32,000 bases of DNA from Psychrobacter cryohalolentis K5. GTDB taxonomy: Bacteria > Pseudomonadota > Gammaproteobacteria > Pseudomonadales > Moraxellaceae. Position numbers and translations under genes: made by a program. Of the stretch, positions 27,252-31,994 are shown in pieces. The stretch's first letter is position 1, and every line of letters begins with the position of its first letter. The notes under the pieces are model-generated. The model did not search any database. It was not told the DNA's origin and was given only the letters and a program-made list of their open reading frames with translations. Location: contig NC_007969.1 of NCBI RefSeq assembly GCF_000013905.1, positions 360,001 to 392,000 of the forward strand, written 5' to 3'.

Positions 27252-27283
27252 TTTCTAATTAATTGGTTTTATAAGTCAGAAAT

Positions 27284-27319
27284 AAAAAAACCGCTTAGCT
27301 TTTGCTAGGCGGTTTTTTT
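27284..27319. terminator. Bidirectional rho-independent terminator (glyA / gltS)
   Basis: The stem CCGCTTAGC / GCTAGGCGG has the loop TTTT and is flanked by A7 and T7. Confidence 0.8.
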
Positions 27320-27353
27320 GTGAGTATATGAATCAGCTTTTTATTTCATCAAA

Positions 27354-28628
27354 TCACATAAATGGCAATTTGGTGAATATCTGCAAGATCGTCGCGTTAA
27401 CGATATCAACGAAGAATGCACCAACCATAGGTACAATTAAAAATGCCTTATGTGATGGTAGGTAACGATCGGTGACCGCCTGCATATTGGCAATGGCTGT
27501 AGGAGTTGCACCCATACCGAAACCACAGTGTCCTGCTGACAAGACAGCTGCATCATAGTCTTTGCCCATGAGTTTGAAGGTCACAAAGTAAGCATAGCCA
27601 ATCATTAGAACAGTTTGTGACAATAAGATGATCAATACCGGACCTGCCAAATCTGTCAATTGCCACAGCTTTAATGACAATAATGCCATCGCTAAGAAAA
27701 GACTCAAAGAAGCGTTACCGATGACGTCAATCGCACGGTCAAACATATCAAAGTTAAATACCATGGTTAAGGTATTGCGCAAAATCACACCACCTGCTAA
27801 TGCCCATACGAAGGTCGGTAACTCAAACCATGTATCCTGTGCTACCAAAGTCATGAGATCAGCAAATGCCAATGCTGCGGCAAACAGTGCCAATGATTCA
27901 ATGGTAGACGATGCCGTAATCAGACGGATATTATCCGGTTTTTCAAACATCTCCTTATTGCTGTGAACTTCCTCTTCGCTGTGCTTGGTGCTATAGAGCG
28001 ACTGCTCACTTGCCAGTTTTTCAACATCACTTGGGTTTGGATTGTCTGCTGTAGGCTTGAGACCAAGCTTTTTAATCAAGCGACGGGCAACAGGACCACC
28101 GATAATACCACCTGCTACTAAACCATAAGTGGCAACTGCGATACCCAGCGTCGTCGCGCCAACCACACCATACTGCTCCTCCAAAGTAATGCCCCAAGCA
28201 CCAGCAGTACCATGTCCACCAGTCAAAGCGATTGAACCGGTCACCAAGCCAAGCAAAGGATCAAGCCCAAGTGCGCTTGCCATTGCAACACCAAGGATGT
28301 CTTGCAAAATGATAAAAACAGACACGATAATGGTGAAAATCAGCAAGGGTGAGCCACCTGCTTTTAACCGACCAAAATCAGCGCTAAGCCCGATAGAGGC
28401 AAAAAACATCAGCATGGTCGCTGTTTGCAGTCCTTGATGGAAATTAAAGCTATAGCCCCAAACAATATTAAGAATATAAACGACAATCGCTGCGACCAAA
28501 CCGCCTGCGACTGGTTCTGGAATATTGAAGTCTTCTAAAAACTTAATTCTTTTGACTAAGAAGCGTCCAAGCAAAAGTACTAATGTGGCTAATATCAGGG
28601 TGTAATAGCCGTTTAGGGTGATTTCCAT
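27354..28628 (-). CDS. gltS: Sodium/glutamate symporter
   Basis: The 424-aa polytopic protein resembles E. coli GltS at its N-terminus (FLEDFNIPEPVAGGL) and throughout. It has a longer hydrophilic central loop. Confidence 0.9.
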   Translation of the reverse strand: MEITLNGYYTLILATLVLLLGRFLVKRIKFLEDFNIPEPVAGGLVAAIVVYILNIVWGYSFNFHQGLQTATMLMFFASIGLSADFGRLKAGGSPLLIFTIIVSVFIILQDILGVAMASALGLDPLLGLVTGSIALTGGHGTAGAWGITLEEQYGVVGATTLGIAVATYGLVAGGIIGGPVARRLIKKLGLKPTADNPNPSDVEKLASEQSLYSTKHSEEEVHSNKEMFEKPDNIRLITASSTIESLALFAAALAFADLMTLVAQDTWFELPTFVWALAGGVILRNTLTMVFNFDMFDRAIDVIGNASLSLFLAMALLSLKLWQLTDLAGPVLIILLSQTVLMIGYAYFVTFKLMGKDYDAAVLSAGHCGFGMGATPTAIANMQAVTDRYLPSHKAFLIVPMVGAFFVDIVNATILQIFTKLPFM

Positions 28629-28716
28629 ATGTTAATCCTTTCTATAAATATAAATTAACCTGAATTCGGGATAAATCTGTTTTTATCTCGAATTTAGATT
28701 CTTCTCTTACTAGCGA

Positions 28717-29091
28717 CTAAGACAAATCATCAGACGCCACGACAATCCACAGCTGTGGTTTGCCAAATTCTTTAAAAGCATCTTCTATAATACTTTTGAA
28801 GACATTAAAATCTTCGGTGTTAATATTTTTAACCGCTGTTAAATCAAGTACCAAATGCTCTATATCACTGTCTGTTAAGCAGTCCCACGCTGCATCCCAG
28901 TTATGACCAAACCAACTTGGGAAATCGCAGGCTTTCGCTAAGCTACTTAAGAGTGTTTCTTTATCTAATCGCTCTTCTATAGGTATAGCGATTGCTTGTT
29001 CAGGAATAGTAGCAAACGTTCTGCTGCTTTTACCTTTAACAAGGTTTTGATCAATGCTGCTTTGATTTACATAGTAAATAGCTTGAGGCAT
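28717..29091 (-). CDS. Barstar-family ribonuclease inhibitor
   Basis: FPSWFGHNWDAAWDCLT aligns with the barstar inhibitory helix LPEYYGENLDALWDCLT, and both inhibitory Asp residues are conserved. There is no signal peptide. The start lies 1 nt after the RNase stop. Confidence 0.85.
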   Translation of the reverse strand: MPQAIYYVNQSSIDQNLVKGKSSRTFATIPEQAIAIPIEERLDKETLLSSLAKACDFPSWFGHNWDAAWDCLTDSDIEHLVLDLTAVKNINTEDFNVFKSIIEDAFKEFGKPQLWIVVASDDLS

Positions 29092-29092
29092 G

Positions 29093-29854
29093 TTATTTCA
29101 CCTCCAGTTTTTGAAAGCTGTCGTAATGATCAAGGGTTAAATAATAAATGGTTGGTGGGTGACCACCAGTGACAATACGCCGTGCGCCGCGATGCGAAAC
29201 GGCAGGTGTGGGTACAGTATATTCGCGATAGTAGCCTTGCGACTGCGCCGGTAACTTGCCTTCGCGATTATAGAAAGTGGTTCCGTCTTTGTTAGGATAA
29301 GGAAAGGGTCCACCTTGCTTGATAAGCACAAGCGTCTGATCTATTTGCGCATCACCAGTGATAGCCGCTGCATTTGAATTACTGGCAGATTCAATATGAT
29401 TTTGCGATAGAGTAATAGATGGCGCGCTATCGGCAAAAAAACTGGATTTCAAATCAGCAAAGAAATAGACCGCAACAGCGATAATGGCAATCAAACTGAA
29501 TAGGGTAGAGAAGCTGCTTTTCTTATTCTGGCTGCTACGATTATTTTTGCTAATGTGGTTTTGATTGTTTTTCTGACTAACATTATCTGAGCTGCGATGC
29601 ATTGAATTTGCCACTGAATTGGACGCTGGCGTCTCTAAAATACTCAATTCATCCGATGTGACTTCGGTGGCGCGCAATTGGTTTTTGTCATTGCGTTCAC
29701 TATTAAAATAGACACGTTGCCCTTTGCTGATAGGCTGCGCCATTCGCACGGATTTTATGTGAAAAAACACATCTTCACTCTGATTGTCGACATCGATAAA
29801 GCCATAGCCTTTATCAGAATTCCAATGCTTAATTTTGCCACTTTGCATGGGCAT
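29093..29854 (-). CDS. Fusion protein: N-terminal cold-shock domain, one TM helix, C-terminal guanyl-specific RNase (RNase Sa / barnase, N1/T1 superfamily)
   Basis: The CSD is GKIKHWNSDKGYGFIDV...DVFFHI and the TM helix is FSTLFSLIAIIAVAVYFFA. The RNase core GGPFPYPNKDGTTFYNREGKLPAQSQGYYREYTVPTP...RGARRIV...YYLTLDHYDSF is colinear with RNase Sa, including the catalytic Glu, Arg and His positions. The more likely start is the second ATG (29846-29848), which has GAGG 6 nt upstream. Confidence 0.85.
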   Translation of the reverse strand: MPMQSGKIKHWNSDKGYGFIDVDNQSEDVFFHIKSVRMAQPISKGQRVYFNSERNDKNQLRATEVTSDELSILETPASNSVANSMHRSSDNVSQKNNQNHISKNNRSSQNKKSSFSTLFSLIAIIAVAVYFFADLKSSFFADSAPSITLSQNHIESASNSNAAAITGDAQIDQTLVLIKQGGPFPYPNKDGTTFYNREGKLPAQSQGYYREYTVPTPAVSHRGARRIVTGGHPPTIYYLTLDHYDSFQKLEVK

Positions 29855-29927
29855 CCTCGTCCTATCGATAGATTTTTATCACGTAAAATAATGGCTTTAT
29901 GTCATACATAATATAGTTATTAATAAT

Positions 29928-29955
29928 AAAAAAACGCCAGCAATTAAGCTGACGT
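29928..29955 (-). terminator. Candidate rho-independent terminator of proA
   Basis: An 8-bp stem with one mismatch (ACGCCAGC / GCTGACGT) has the loop AATTAA. T7 follows on the minus strand. Confidence 0.55.
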
Positions 29956-30010
29956 TCTGTAACAATTATACTGCAGACGACATTATAAATTGTAGTGAAG
30001 ACGTAATAAA

Positions 30011-31312
30011 TTAGGCACGCGTTTCGCCATGACCATAAACAATCCACTTTTGTGAAGTTAAGCCTTCAAGTCCGACAGGTCCACGCGCATGAATCTTGTC
30101 AGTTGAGATACCAATTTCGGCACCAAGACCATATTCAAAACCATCGGCAAAACGGCTAGAGGCGTTAATCATCACGCTTGCTGAGTCGACTTCGCGGATA
30201 AATCGCTGTGACTTGGTATAGTTATCTGTAATGATAACATCGGTATGATGACTGCCATGGGTGTTGATATGCTCAATCGCCTCATCAATGCCGGATAATA
30301 TTTTAATCGCGAGGATAGGGGCGAGATATTCGGTATCCCAATCTTCAGCGGTGGCGGCTGATAAATGGCCTTTAAGGATAGTGTTATCGTTCAGAATAGC
30401 CTGCGCTTTATCATCAAGGCGTAGTTGCATCGCATTATCGGCTTCGACGATGGCTTCGGCAATTTTTGGTAACAGCTCATCAGCGATGGCTTCATCGACC
30501 AACAAGGTTTCCATGGTATTACAAGTACCATAGCGATGGGTTTTGGCATTGACACTCACGTTAATGGCAATCTCAGGATCAGCATCACTGTCGATAAAGG
30601 TATGACAGTTGCCATCTAAGTGCTTAATAACAGGCACGCGTGCATCGCGGCTGATACGTTCAATCAGCCCTTTACCGCCGCGTGGTACGATAACATCAAC
30701 ATACTCTGTCATAGTGATAAGCTCACCGACGGCAGCACGGTCAGTGGTCTCTAGTACTTGGACACTATACTCAGACATACCAACGTTTTTTAGTCCTTCT
30801 AAAATACATTTGGCAATCGCTTGATTGGACTCAAATGCTTCAGAGCCGCCACGTAAAATGATGGCATTACCTGACTTTAGTGCGAGCGAGGCTGCTTCCA
30901 AAGTGACATTGGGACGCGACTCATAAATCATACCGACCACACCAAGTGGCACGCGCATTTTGCCCAGATGAATACCCGACGGACGATACGTCATGTCTGT
31001 AACCTCACCAATAGGGTCAGGCAATGCCGCAACGTCTTTTAGACCTTGTAACATGCCATCAAAGCGGGCGTCATTTAACTCCAAGCGATCAAGCAGCGCA
31101 GCATCTAGGTCGTTCTTTTGTCCATTGTCCATATCAACTGTATTGGCGGCTAAAATATCTTGCTTAGCGTTCTTTAATACATCGTGAATCGCCATCAGTG
31201 CAGCATTTTTGTCACCCGTATTGGCAGCAGCCAGTGCTCTGGATGCAGCGCGCGCTTCTTTACCAACATTTTGCATATAAGCGGTTACGTCTGTGGTATT
31301 GGTTTGACTCAT
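30011..31312 (-). CDS. proA: Glutamate-5-semialdehyde dehydrogenase (gamma-glutamyl phosphate reductase)
   Basis: The 433-aa protein is ProA-like throughout ([28 protein letters not shown], catalytic Cys in [19 protein letters not shown]). Confidence 0.95.
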
Positions 31313-31667: not shown

Positions 31668-31994
31668 ATGACCATTGATCAACAACAAATTCAAAAATCT
31701 GGCGCGTACAAAAACTGGTTGGGCGTTGGATTGGTTGCAGCGGCATTGACGCTAAGTGCCTGTGGTAAGAAAGATGAGCCACCGGTAGAGACGGCGCCAG
31801 CAGTCGATGCGCAGACTGCGGTAGAAGATGAAGCAACGGGTATGGCTACTGCCGGCAGTGCTGACGATGTTGCGGTAGCATCTGCTGACAATGATATGGA
31901 TGTCAGTAGCACGGATGATGTGGCCGTAGCAACTGCGGATGATGCAGAGATGATGGACGGTACTGAAAGCGAAGAGCACGTCTCAAGCTACTAA
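31668..31994 (+). CDS. Small acidic lipoprotein of unknown function
   Basis: GGAG lies 8 nt upstream of the ATG. A signal peptide with lipobox LSAC is followed by a D/E/A/V-rich low-complexity region containing a repeated DDVAVA(S/T)AD motif. Confidence 0.65.
   Translation: MTIDQQQIQKSGAYKNWLGVGLVAAALTLSACGKKDEPPVETAPAVDAQTAVEDEATGMATAGSADDVAVASADNDMDVSSTDDVAVATADDAEMMDGTESEEHVSSY

Follow-up and report, generated by a model that had tools for sequence, protein, structure and literature searches.

Textbooks describe both secreted ribonuclease/barstar pairs and cold-shock proteins, the latter as RNA chaperones of the cytoplasm. A gene pair of Psychrobacter cryohalolentis K5 raises the question of how the two come to belong together. 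Its first gene joins a cold-shock domain (CSD) and a RNase in one polypeptide that is predicted to cross the membrane, its second gene encodes a barstar-family inhibitor, and the fusion is conserved through a cold-adapted genus and in other gammaproteobacteria. The generic label 'ribonuclease domain-containing protein' hides what would be a membrane protein in which two domains handle nucleic acids. We analyzed the pair within the window, by which we mean the whole stretch of 32,000 nt of DNA under study (Table 1). We consider it rather probable that the pair is a conserved chromosomal cassette for a membrane-anchored periplasmic RNase with a cytoplasmic CSD and for a cytoplasmic barstar.

Table 1. 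Features of the fusion/barstar locus, in window positions (TM, transmembrane; KD, Kyte-Doolittle; AF2, AlphaFold2)
Feature	Position	Strand	Basis and remarks
CSD-TM-RNase fusion ORF	29854..29093	minus	253 aa counted from first ATG (ORF list)
Cold-shock domain, residues 3-67	29654..29848	minus	Pfam PF00313, AF2, Foldseek; predicted cytoplasmic
Disordered Ser/Asn/Gln-rich linker, residues 68-112	29519..29653	minus	pLDDT <50; ends in basic patch NNRSSQNKK
Single transmembrane helix/signal-anchor, residues 113-136	29447..29518	minus	KD maximum 2.33, AF2 helix
Second disordered linker, residues 137-167	29354..29446	minus	Low pLDDT; predicted periplasmic
Guanyl-specific RNase Sa/barnase-type domain, residues 168-253	29096..29353	minus	Pfam PF00545, PDB, Foldseek; predicted periplasmic
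Shine-Dalgarno GGAGGT of barstar	29100..29105	minus	Within 3' end of RNase ORF; read from sequence
Barstar-family inhibitor gene	29091..28717	minus	124 aa; Pfam PF01337 (ORF list)
Inhibitory helix motif NWDAAWD	28882..28902	minus	Aligned to barstar NLDALWD; Asp35 and Asp39 equivalents
Intrinsic terminator of proA	29931..29958	minus	5' of the pair; terminator scan
AT-rich hairpin, barstar stop to gltS start	28660..28697		Terminator-like match, 16 pairs, 4 G-C

The neighbours of the pair are gltS and proA, both of which exceed their NCBIfam cut-offs, and the order proA-fusion-barstar-gltS is core-genome synteny in four other Psychrobacter genomes. No mobile elements were found at the Psychrobacter locus, and its core-genome position is fixed, in agreement with the site between gltS and proA, free of mobile-element context, given for the pair in the original prediction; the setting is a housekeeping one. 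Translation of the fusion probably starts at the second ATG (29848), giving 251 aa, because a GAGG lies 6 nt 5' of this codon and the nearest homologues are 251 aa long with the N-terminus MQSGK. Met85 was considered as an internal start of a CSD-less precursor and was ruled out, as it is unconserved. Read from the sequence, 1 nt separates the fusion stop from the barstar start; in the loci L161 and L164 stop and start overlap by 4 nt, compared with 1 nt apart in the window. Given this gap and a Shine-Dalgarno sequence that lies within the RNase ORF, the two genes appear to be translationally coupled and co-expressed.

The hairpin of the proA terminator is kept in all aligned Psychrobacter loci. 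Only ~75 nt lie between this terminator and the fusion start codon, and therefore there is no long cspA-type leader; the gap 5' of the fusion in orthologous loci is only ~25-80 nt. An Rfam scan of positions 28400-30200 found no family at threshold and no cspA thermoregulator, the best match being Hrs13 (24.5 bits versus 52), which overlaps the proA terminator. A promoter scan of the minus strand 5' of the fusion, covering the 75-nt gap, gave no sigma-70-like site. The fusion may be expressed by read-through from proA or from an unrecognised promoter, and the hairpin on the gltS side of the pair may be a weak terminator.

A Pfam search recovered the CSD, RNase and barstar domains that had been proposed for the pair, all three above their curated cut-offs. 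The CSD match covers residues 5-66 (E = 2.8e-13, 50 bits versus a cut-off of 27). In the AF2 model this domain is a five-strand (OB) barrel with pLDDT >90, its Foldseek matches are Bc-Csp and CspA, and with no leader 5' of it the folded CSD is the N-terminus of the protein. The RNP1 motif, KGYGFI, is preserved; in RNP2 (DVFFHI) Ile takes the place of Phe30. Compared with canonical cold-shock proteins, the Trp8 equivalent is His, the Trp having moved by one position, and the Phe38 loop is shorter. Because Trp8, Phe30 and the Phe38 loop deviate in this way, nucleic-acid binding by the CSD is an assumption. The best NCBIfam score against the named Csp equivalogs (CspA/CspD/CspE) was ~40 bits versus cut-offs of 115-152; the domain is a CSD, yet it is no orthologue of any named Csp. 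It also matched, weakly in both cases, the NCBIfam model of the retron Se72 effector (E = 4e-8, 33 bits versus a cut-off of 82) and PADLOC CSD_V (E = 2.6e-10).

The RNase match covers residues 168-250 (E = 1.3e-19, 71 bits versus a cut-off of 24), and the closest solved structure is RNase Sa3 (1mgr; E = 2.7e-22, 54% identity). The AF2 model shows the alpha+beta RNase Sa fold with pLDDT ~95 for this domain, and Foldseek comparison with 1mgr, 1pyl and 1rge gave TM-scores (target) of 0.78-0.85 and rmsd values of 0.9-1.4 Å. The catalytic Glu/Arg/Arg/His are in place, as had been claimed: none of E211, R222, R226 and H243 varies among 15 divergent family members (36-75% identity), and N196 and E198 of the guanine-recognition NRE loop are likewise invariant in them. 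The catalytic and guanine-loop residues align with those of RNase Sa3, Sa2 and Sa. We infer that the domain is catalytically competent and guanyl-specific.

In the barstar protein the family domain spans residues 36-109 (E = 1.6e-14, 54 bits versus a cut-off of 23.4), and PDB barstar chains match it, including 1ay7_B, the barstar bound to RNase Sa. The description of this gene as lying 1 nt past the stop, with both inhibitory Asp residues and no signal peptide, held up: its NWDAAWDCLT aligns to barstar NLDALWDCLT, and no hydrophobic segment occurs (KD maximum 0.54). An N-terminal extension of about 35 aa had also been reported. It is present, but its length is ~30 aa, and such an extension is ordinary for proteobacterial cassettes and for its clade: the inhibitory motif stands at residue 64, the median of the 25 cassette partners with a scorable motif. 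In the solved complex 1ay7 barstar inhibits RNase Sa, and the co-encoded barstar most likely inhibits the fusion RNase, as a cytoplasmic safety inhibitor. Psychrobacter, Thiopseudomonas and Geopseudomonas retain an adjacent barstar. L005 and L163, which belong to one lineage, that of Pseudomonas sp. F1_0610 and its relatives, lack it and yet have intact catalytic residues; therefore barstar is not obligatory, or it is encoded elsewhere in those genomes.

The region between the CSD and the RNase bears out the predicted Ser/Asn-rich linker with a basic patch and a single transmembrane segment. The linker is disordered in the AF2 model, and the protein has one hydrophobic helix in total, with its KD maximum reached over 19 residues and an AF2 helix at residues 115-136. 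The 15 residues on the N-terminal side of the helix include 4 Lys/Arg (net +4), compared with 1 Lys/Arg (net -1) on the C-terminal side. The same count in 21 members of the family and of the wider CSD class, over 15 residues on each side of the TM segment, gave 80 Lys and Arg N-terminally versus 16 C-terminally. The charge bias is that expected under the positive-inside rule for the orientation given in the original prediction, and the fusion is most likely a bitopic N-in/C-out inner-membrane protein with its CSD in the cytoplasm and its RNase in the periplasm. Column identity, taken over the nearest 120 homologues (metagenome clusters for the most part, with those that are named being Psychrobacter), is 88% for the CSD, 84% for the TM segment and 92% for the RNase, compared with 58% for the first linker and 55% for the second. 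By these values every module is under selection.

Beyond the Psychrobacter genomes, the fusion is present in Pseudomonas, Geopseudomonas, Thiopseudomonas and Cardiobacteriaceae, and many metagenome clusters contain it. The CSD and the Ribonuclease domain stand together in >120 clusters of 76-98% identity; where a source name is given, it is Psychrobacter. The two genes of the pair are more divergent than their neighbours, at 64-69% and 62-65% identity versus 87-98%. No conserved neighbours besides barstar were found, and contexts vary between genera. The suggestion that the architecture was undescribed stands in part. We found no paper on this fusion in the literature, including under Psychrobacter, P. 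arcticus and barstar, and no functional study. The architecture itself is already in public databases under generic names, e.g. 'guanyl-specific ribonuclease Sa/cold shock CspA family protein', occurs in several gammaproteobacterial genera and uses a module that is generic. It might have proved to be both common and functionally characterised; it is common, and no characterisation was found.

Homologues that lack the CSD point to the origin of this arrangement. Across 80 species-level loci, RNase lengths are mostly 115-170 aa, and in most of these loci a barstar gene comes directly after the RNase gene. Alignments of CSD-less homologues start at query residues ~107-123, which is the hydrophobic segment of the fusion. 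The hydrophobic run starts at a median of residue 9 in CSD-less proteins (81 proteins; the remaining 15 of the set of 96 have no such run), compared with residue 93 in 19 fused proteins, and its length is 17 residues in the former versus 18 in the latter. The fusion helix is homologous to the N-terminal leader of the CSD-less RNases, and the fusion cassette is a variant of a widespread secreted RNase and barstar cassette. In a neighbour-joining (NJ) tree of RNase domains, 21 of 30 CSD-linked tips fall in one near-pure clade, which also holds 5 CSD-less members of small length that may be partial; the other 9 tips are scattered. We do not claim a single origin, because a tree of only 90 columns is too weak for this.

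The N-terminal half of the fusion has relatives of its own. When the 67-aa CSD alone was compared with a 5.8-billion-protein database by a word index, that index limited the result to 3 matches, and a pattern scan of metagenomes was used instead. Among 45 CSD ORFs of the W-N...KG[FY]GFI subtype sampled in this way there were 30 CSD-DUF1294, 2 CSD-TM-Excalibur and 3 CSD-TM-RNase proteins, and 3 of the 45 were judged by sequence inspection to be tail-anchored CSD-TM proteins. The module of CSD, basic linker and TM segment therefore also precedes DUF1294, Excalibur or nothing. The fusion has the layout of this class, namely an N-terminal W-N...KG[FY]GFI CSD, a basic linker and a TM segment, and its CSD-TM module is generic. 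A precedent for a working cytoplasmic CSD in this class is VV12532 ('CspA-vvu') of Vibrio vulnificus, with the layout CSD-central region-Excalibur: in E. coli it is functional both as a cold-shock protein, by complementation of delta-cspABGE, and as an antiterminator (PMC2761259). In the literature CSD-DUF1294 proteins appear only as uncharacterised 'CSP with DUF1294' (PMC7404187).

In our preferred reading, the first gene would encode, in order, the CSD, a disordered basic linker, an N-in/C-out signal-anchor, a disordered periplasmic tether of ~30 aa and the periplasmic RNase. A generic CSD and basic-linker module would have been placed ahead of the original signal sequence, turning it into an internal anchor. 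Barstar would block the active site wherever an RNase domain folds ahead of translocation or in its absence. Nutrient scavenging is the likely role of the RNase, which would break down RNA in the periplasm or outside the cell. By analogy with its class relatives, the CSD is most likely a membrane-tethered binder of single-stranded RNA or DNA at the cytoplasmic face. Some points speak against this reading: the CSD departs from canonical cold-shock proteins, two members have no adjacent barstar, the upstream gap gave no recognisable promoter, and the data give no reason for having an RNA-binding domain and a RNase on opposite sides of the membrane.

Several other explanations were weighed, among them the regulated toxin/immunity pair and the proteolytic release that the original prediction had named beside a tethered scavenging nuclease; all three of those roles retain some probability. 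A frameshift or misassembly that fused a csp gene with the gene of a secreted RNase found no support, and we regard its chances as practically nil: the same uninterrupted ORF is present in >120 independent 90%-identity clusters, in finished and draft genomes of several genera, including other Psychrobacter, and in many metagenomes. It is unlikely, though a serious alternative, that the helix has kept its function as a signal sequence and that signal peptidase or a different protease cuts it, so that the RNase is set free in the periplasm or the medium, as barnase and RNase Sa are. A CSD-linker-helix remnant would then be degraded or stay as a separate membrane-tethered cold-shock protein. Such release would fit the CSD-less homologues, in which the equivalent segment is an ordinary N-terminal leader, the disordered periplasmic linker, which would be open to proteases, and the tail-anchored CSD-TM proteins that exist as stand-alone genes. 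Small-residue -3/-1 sites do exist past the helix in the window protein, e.g. ADS↓AP at 143. However, this candidate lies ~10 residues past the hydrophobic core, and by a crude rule-based scan the family shows no positionally conserved -3/-1 motif; some of its members lack such a motif anywhere in a plausible range. We think it improbable that the CSD-linker-anchor couples the state of cytoplasmic RNA to the extracytoplasmic enzyme or controls its activity or release. In one version, the nascent CSD would bind its own or neighbouring mRNA and pin translation to the membrane, and the lethal RNase would always be exported co-translationally; some lineages could therefore manage without an adjacent barstar. 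In another, RNA- or cold-dependent clustering or proteolysis on the CSD side would set how active the periplasmic RNase is or whether it is released. Were either version true, the membrane-tethered CSD class (DUF1294, Excalibur, RNase) would be an undescribed link between RNA binding and envelope functions.

The presence of an inhibitor gene also brings toxin systems to mind. Delivery of the RNase to competitors, e.g. by vesicles or after release, with barstar as self-immunity, would agree with the coupled toxin-then-immunity gene order and with the divergence of the pair relative to its neighbours, and Zhang et al. (2012) count 'simple barnase-barstar gene pairs' as an incipient toxin-immunity arrangement (PMC3482391). 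We judge it quite improbable here, since Pfam finds only CSD and Ribonuclease and no marker domain for secretion or trafficking, the RNase domain shows no polymorphism and the divergence falls mostly in the linkers, the core-genome site in Psychrobacter is fixed and free of mobile elements, and there is no evident route for a free guanyl-specific RNase into the cytoplasm of a Gram-negative target. The flanks hold a single barstar and no orphan cassettes, unlike a polymorphic toxin system. It is highly improbable that the RNase instead cuts the cell's own RNA, on loss of barstar or on phage or cold RNA sensed by the CSD, as an intracellular toxin-antitoxin or anti-phage system resembling the CSD-containing retron effectors. 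The toxin and inhibitor layout and the weak Se72 and CSD_V matches suggested it, but these matches reflect CSD similarity only, PADLOC gave no match for the barstar or the RNase domain and recognised no known system, and no reverse transcriptase or ncRNA lies near the pair. The helix and charge bias moreover place the RNase outside the cytoplasm, and in 81 of the 96 CSD-less homologues the equivalent hydrophobic segment is N-terminal, as in exported proteins.

We believe that the anchored cassette, as the reading we prefer, is of wider interest. The fusion is one branch of a larger, essentially unstudied class of membrane-tethered CSD proteins, most of which are CSD-DUF1294. It is the most experimentally tractable entry to this class, because its C-terminal enzyme is well understood and its inhibitor is known; the RNase branch lends itself to direct assays of topology, processing and activity and of what the CSD contributes.

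Among named systems, retron Se72-type effectors and PADLOC CSD_V resemble the fusion in CSD sequence only; the Se72-type CSD effectors have neither a TM segment nor a RNase, and no retron RT or msr-msd was found near the fusion. The CSD-DUF1294 proteins (PF00313 + PF06961) share with it the N-terminal CSD subtype, a linker and membrane segments, but DUF1294 is multi-pass, compared with a single anchor and a soluble enzyme in the fusion. The CSD-TM-Excalibur proteins are built, as the fusion is predicted to be, from an N-terminal CSD, a basic linker, a single hydrophobic helix and a C-terminal domain outside the cytoplasm; the assignment to the same subtype is based on L108 and L124, which were retrieved with W-N...KG[FY]GFI, and not on VV12532. 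Unlike the fusion they end in a small Ca-binding Excalibur domain, with no enzyme and no inhibitor gene.

On the RNase side, simple proteobacterial RNase and barstar cassettes, which are uncharacterised and correspond to the gene pairs of Zhang et al. (2012), share with the fusion cassette the genes, their order and coupling, homology through the leader and the barstar extension, and differ from it in having an N-terminal leader and no CSD. The fusion RNase shows 46-55% identity with RNase Sa, Sa2 and Sa3, and the same fold at ~1 Å rmsd. RNase Sa has a disulfide, whereas the fusion is without the Cys pair. RNase Sa, Sa2 and Sa3 of Streptomyces aureofaciens and barnase of Bacillus amyloliquefaciens are made with a cleavable N-terminal signal peptide and end up as free, soluble proteins of ~96-110 aa. 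The fusion has in common with them the catalytic Glu/Arg/Arg/His, the guanine-binding NRE loop and a barstar-type inhibitor, here encoded directly after it; it differs in its Gram-negative host and in the ~110 residues of CSD and linker that stand ahead of the hydrophobic segment.

The gene for the fusion of a cold-shock domain (CSD), a single hydrophobic helix (TM) and an RNase lies on the same strand as the barstar gene that follows it, with 1 nt between stop and start codons (TAA-C-ATG), exactly as the original prediction placed them. A GGAGGT Shine-Dalgarno sequence is read within the 3′ end of the fusion ORF, ahead of the barstar. Based on Shine-Dalgarno spacing and the N-termini of homologues, the fusion probably starts at the second ATG (29848), giving 251 aa. 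The pair is flanked by gltS and proA, as previously assigned, with glyA on the far side of gltS.

Features of the fusion-barstar locus and of related loci (fusion residues count from the first ATG; column identity is for the 120 closest homologues)
Feature	Location	Pfam E	Column identity
Fusion ORF, 253 aa	29854..29093 (-)		
CSD	fusion residues 5-66	2.8e-13	0.88
TM helix, sole hydrophobic segment	fusion residues 113-136		0.84
Microbial ribonuclease domain	fusion residues 168-250	1.3e-19	0.92
Two linkers			0.55-0.58
Barstar ORF, 124 aa	29091..28717 (-)	1.6e-14	
gltS-glyA gap, ~100 nt	27252-27353		
Hrs13 sRNA match	29927-30005 (-)		
108-aa ORF	31668-31994 (+)		
Fusion gene, Pseudomonas sp. F1_0610	L005 5974-6639		
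Fusion gene, same lineage	L163 5001-5669		
Split barstar, Psychrobacter sp. JCM 18901	L002 6722-7220		
502-aa membrane protein gene	L001 8714-10222		
IS605-family OrfB/TnpB and stand-alone CSD gene, Geopseudomonas aromaticivorans	L161 7809-9801		

Using Pfam curated cut-offs, the expected CSD, ribonuclease and barstar domains were each recovered above threshold. For the RNase part the nearest solved structures were RNase Sa3, Sa2 and Sa (E 2.7e-22 to ~1e-18); those nearest to the N-terminus belong to the CspB/CspA family. A Kyte-Doolittle scan gave a maximum of 2.33 in the TM helix and found no hydrophobic segment in the barstar. An AlphaFold2 model of the fusion, built from a 15-sequence family alignment, contains two confident domains (each pLDDT >90), with two disordered linkers and a long helix (115-136) between them. 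In Foldseek the C-terminal domain matched RNase Sa, Sa2 and Sa3 at ~1 Å and the N-terminal domain superposed on bacterial cold-shock proteins. The catalytic Glu/Arg/Arg/His set proposed from the sequence (E211, R222, R226, H243) was borne out, being invariant, with the NRE guanine loop and the CSD aromatic core, in all 15 members (36-75% identity to the window protein).

More than 120 close relatives, including proteins of P. arcticus, P. glacincola, P. luti and P. maritimus, match the full-length fusion at 76-98% identity and carry both Pfam domains. The order proA-fusion-barstar-gltS is retained in four further Psychrobacter genomes. A library of 50%-identity representatives contained ~15 distinct clusters with this layout, from Cardiobacteriaceae, Pseudomonas, Geopseudomonas and Thiopseudomonas, and a search with a profile built from the non-Psychrobacter members added dozens of 90% clusters with both domains. 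A join created by frameshift or misassembly, raised earlier as a possible refutation, is ruled out by the recurrence of the fusion in many independent clusters, genomes and genera. Column identity is far higher in the CSD, TM helix and RNase than in the linkers, and all three modules are therefore under purifying selection. The architecture was not recognised at first as a described one; public databases already list it, with generic names such as 'possible guanine-specific ribonuclease with a cold-shock DNA-binding domain', and a search of open-access papers found none on it.

Several loci differ from the window. At two loci of one lineage (L005, L163) the fusion gene lies directly 3′ of a TonB-dependent receptor gene and its catalytic residues are intact, yet no barstar gene adjoins it. 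In L002 two overlapping ORFs, of 81 and 91 aa, take the place of a single barstar gene, the result either of a frameshift mutation or of a draft-genome sequencing error. Four loci from other Psychrobacter genomes (L001-L004) have an extra gene between gltS and glyA, missing from the window, for a 502-aa multi-pass membrane protein that by eye resembles an amino-acid/sodium carrier. The only mobile-element neighbour among all loci seen is an IS605-family OrfB/TnpB with Y1 transposase in L161; it lies 2-4 kb downstream of the pair, as does a separate 69-aa stand-alone CSD gene. The product of the window's 108-aa ORF begins like a lipoprotein (LTLSAC), ends in a repetitive, acidic tail rich in Ala and Asp, and has no NCBIfam match; homologues (62-70% identity) lie upstream of proA in other Psychrobacter genomes.

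We also compared the fusion with RNases that lack a CSD. Scanning a single genome for each species yielded 80 loci in Beta- and Gammaproteobacteria, Actinobacteria and Cyanobacteria. Most encode an RNase of ~115-170 aa that starts with a hydrophobic leader, and have a barstar gene immediately after it. The tblastn alignments with CSD-less genes start at query residues ~107-123, and homology therefore takes in the hydrophobic segment. Among gene-called representatives, the median start of the hydrophobic run is residue 9 in CSD-less proteins (81 of 96 examined; the other 15 have none) and residue 93 in CSD-fused ones (n = 19), and the run is of similar length in each, 17 and 18 residues. Most simply, these data can be read as the insertion of a CSD and linker ahead of an ordinary secreted RNase's signal sequence, consistent with the 'simple barnase-barstar gene pairs' of Zhang et al. 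2012 (PMC3482391). In a neighbour-joining tree of the RNase domain, 21 of 30 CSD-linked tips fall in one near-pure clade, too weak a result to prove a single origin. The barstar is N-terminally extended as claimed, by ~30 rather than ~35 aa; it is nevertheless ordinary, not unusually long, since its inhibitory motif lies at residue 64, the median for cassette partners, which are mostly 130-150 aa. Tandem RNase domains also occur: two of RNase Sa type follow the CSD and TM in the family member P0123 (385 aa, ENA metagenome), whose cluster includes a 484-aa member (P0271), and many CSD-less relatives have two or three (P0124, P0130, P0135, P0139-P0141).

Within 15 residues of the helix, RNase, Excalibur and tail-anchored members together have 80 Lys/Arg on the N-terminal side versus 16 on the C-terminal side. 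This strong positive-inside signal agrees with the original prediction and points to a cytoplasmic CSD. We infer topology, RNase activity and barstar inhibition alike in the mechanism that we favour as the probable one. The CSD would fold in the cytoplasm, and the helix would leave the ribosome ahead of RNase synthesis and insert N-in/C-out. The translocated RNase would then act in the periplasm on a ~30-residue flexible tether, cutting RNA to guanosine 3′-phosphate ends, probably for scavenging. The coupled barstar would remain cytoplasmic and neutralise whatever RNase folds there, a role with precedents in barnase/barstar and RNase Sa/barstar (1ay7).

Cleavage after the helix, releasing the RNase, is unlikely though worth considering: a crude scan finds possible -3/-1 sites, none of which keeps its position across the family. 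We consider it improbable that the protein is an interbacterial toxin with barstar as immunity protein, because Pfam finds no trafficking domain, the RNase domain is conserved and the locus is fixed in the core genome. An intracellular toxin-antitoxin or defence module is very improbable; it clashes with the predicted topology, and the CSD is the sole PADLOC match. As for expression of the fusion, cold regulation via a cspA-type 5′ UTR is unlikely, since only ~25-80 nt separate the conserved proA terminator from the fusion start codon, leaving no long cspA-like leader, and Rfam and promoter scans found neither an Rfam element nor a clear promoter upstream. A sub-threshold Hrs13 match (24.5 bits, where the gathering score is 52) overlaps the hairpin of the proA terminator and most likely reflects terminator shape only.

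Metagenome contigs were scanned for W[NH]xx[KR]G[YF]GFI, the CSD motif of this family, and the 45 ORFs that reached 100 aa or more were analysed with Pfam. CSD-DUF1294 proteins, which appear in the literature only as uncharacterised (PMC7404187), made up 30; two were CSD-TM-Excalibur, three CSD-TM-RNase and, by sequence inspection, three tail-anchored CSD-TM proteins (~100-115 aa), the remainder being eukaryote-like Gly-rich multi-CSD proteins and others. The CSD-anchor module is generic, not RNase-specific. Metagenome loci L136, L144 and L151 encode proteins of 101-114 aa with a CSD and then a C-terminal hydrophobic helix alone; such tail-anchored cold-shock proteins seem undescribed.

The joining of two RNA-handling domains, predicted to lie on opposite sides of a membrane, is a real, conserved and odd pairing that is experimentally tractable; on present evidence it reveals no new principle. 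The fusion is two known kinds at once, an RNase/barstar cassette and a membrane-tethered CSD protein. Vibrio vulnificus VV12532 (CSD-central region-Excalibur) rescues the cold sensitivity of E. coli ΔcspABGE and antiterminates transcription (PMC2761259), which shows that CSDs of this class are able to act on cytoplasmic RNA; it has an Excalibur domain where the fusion has an RNase.
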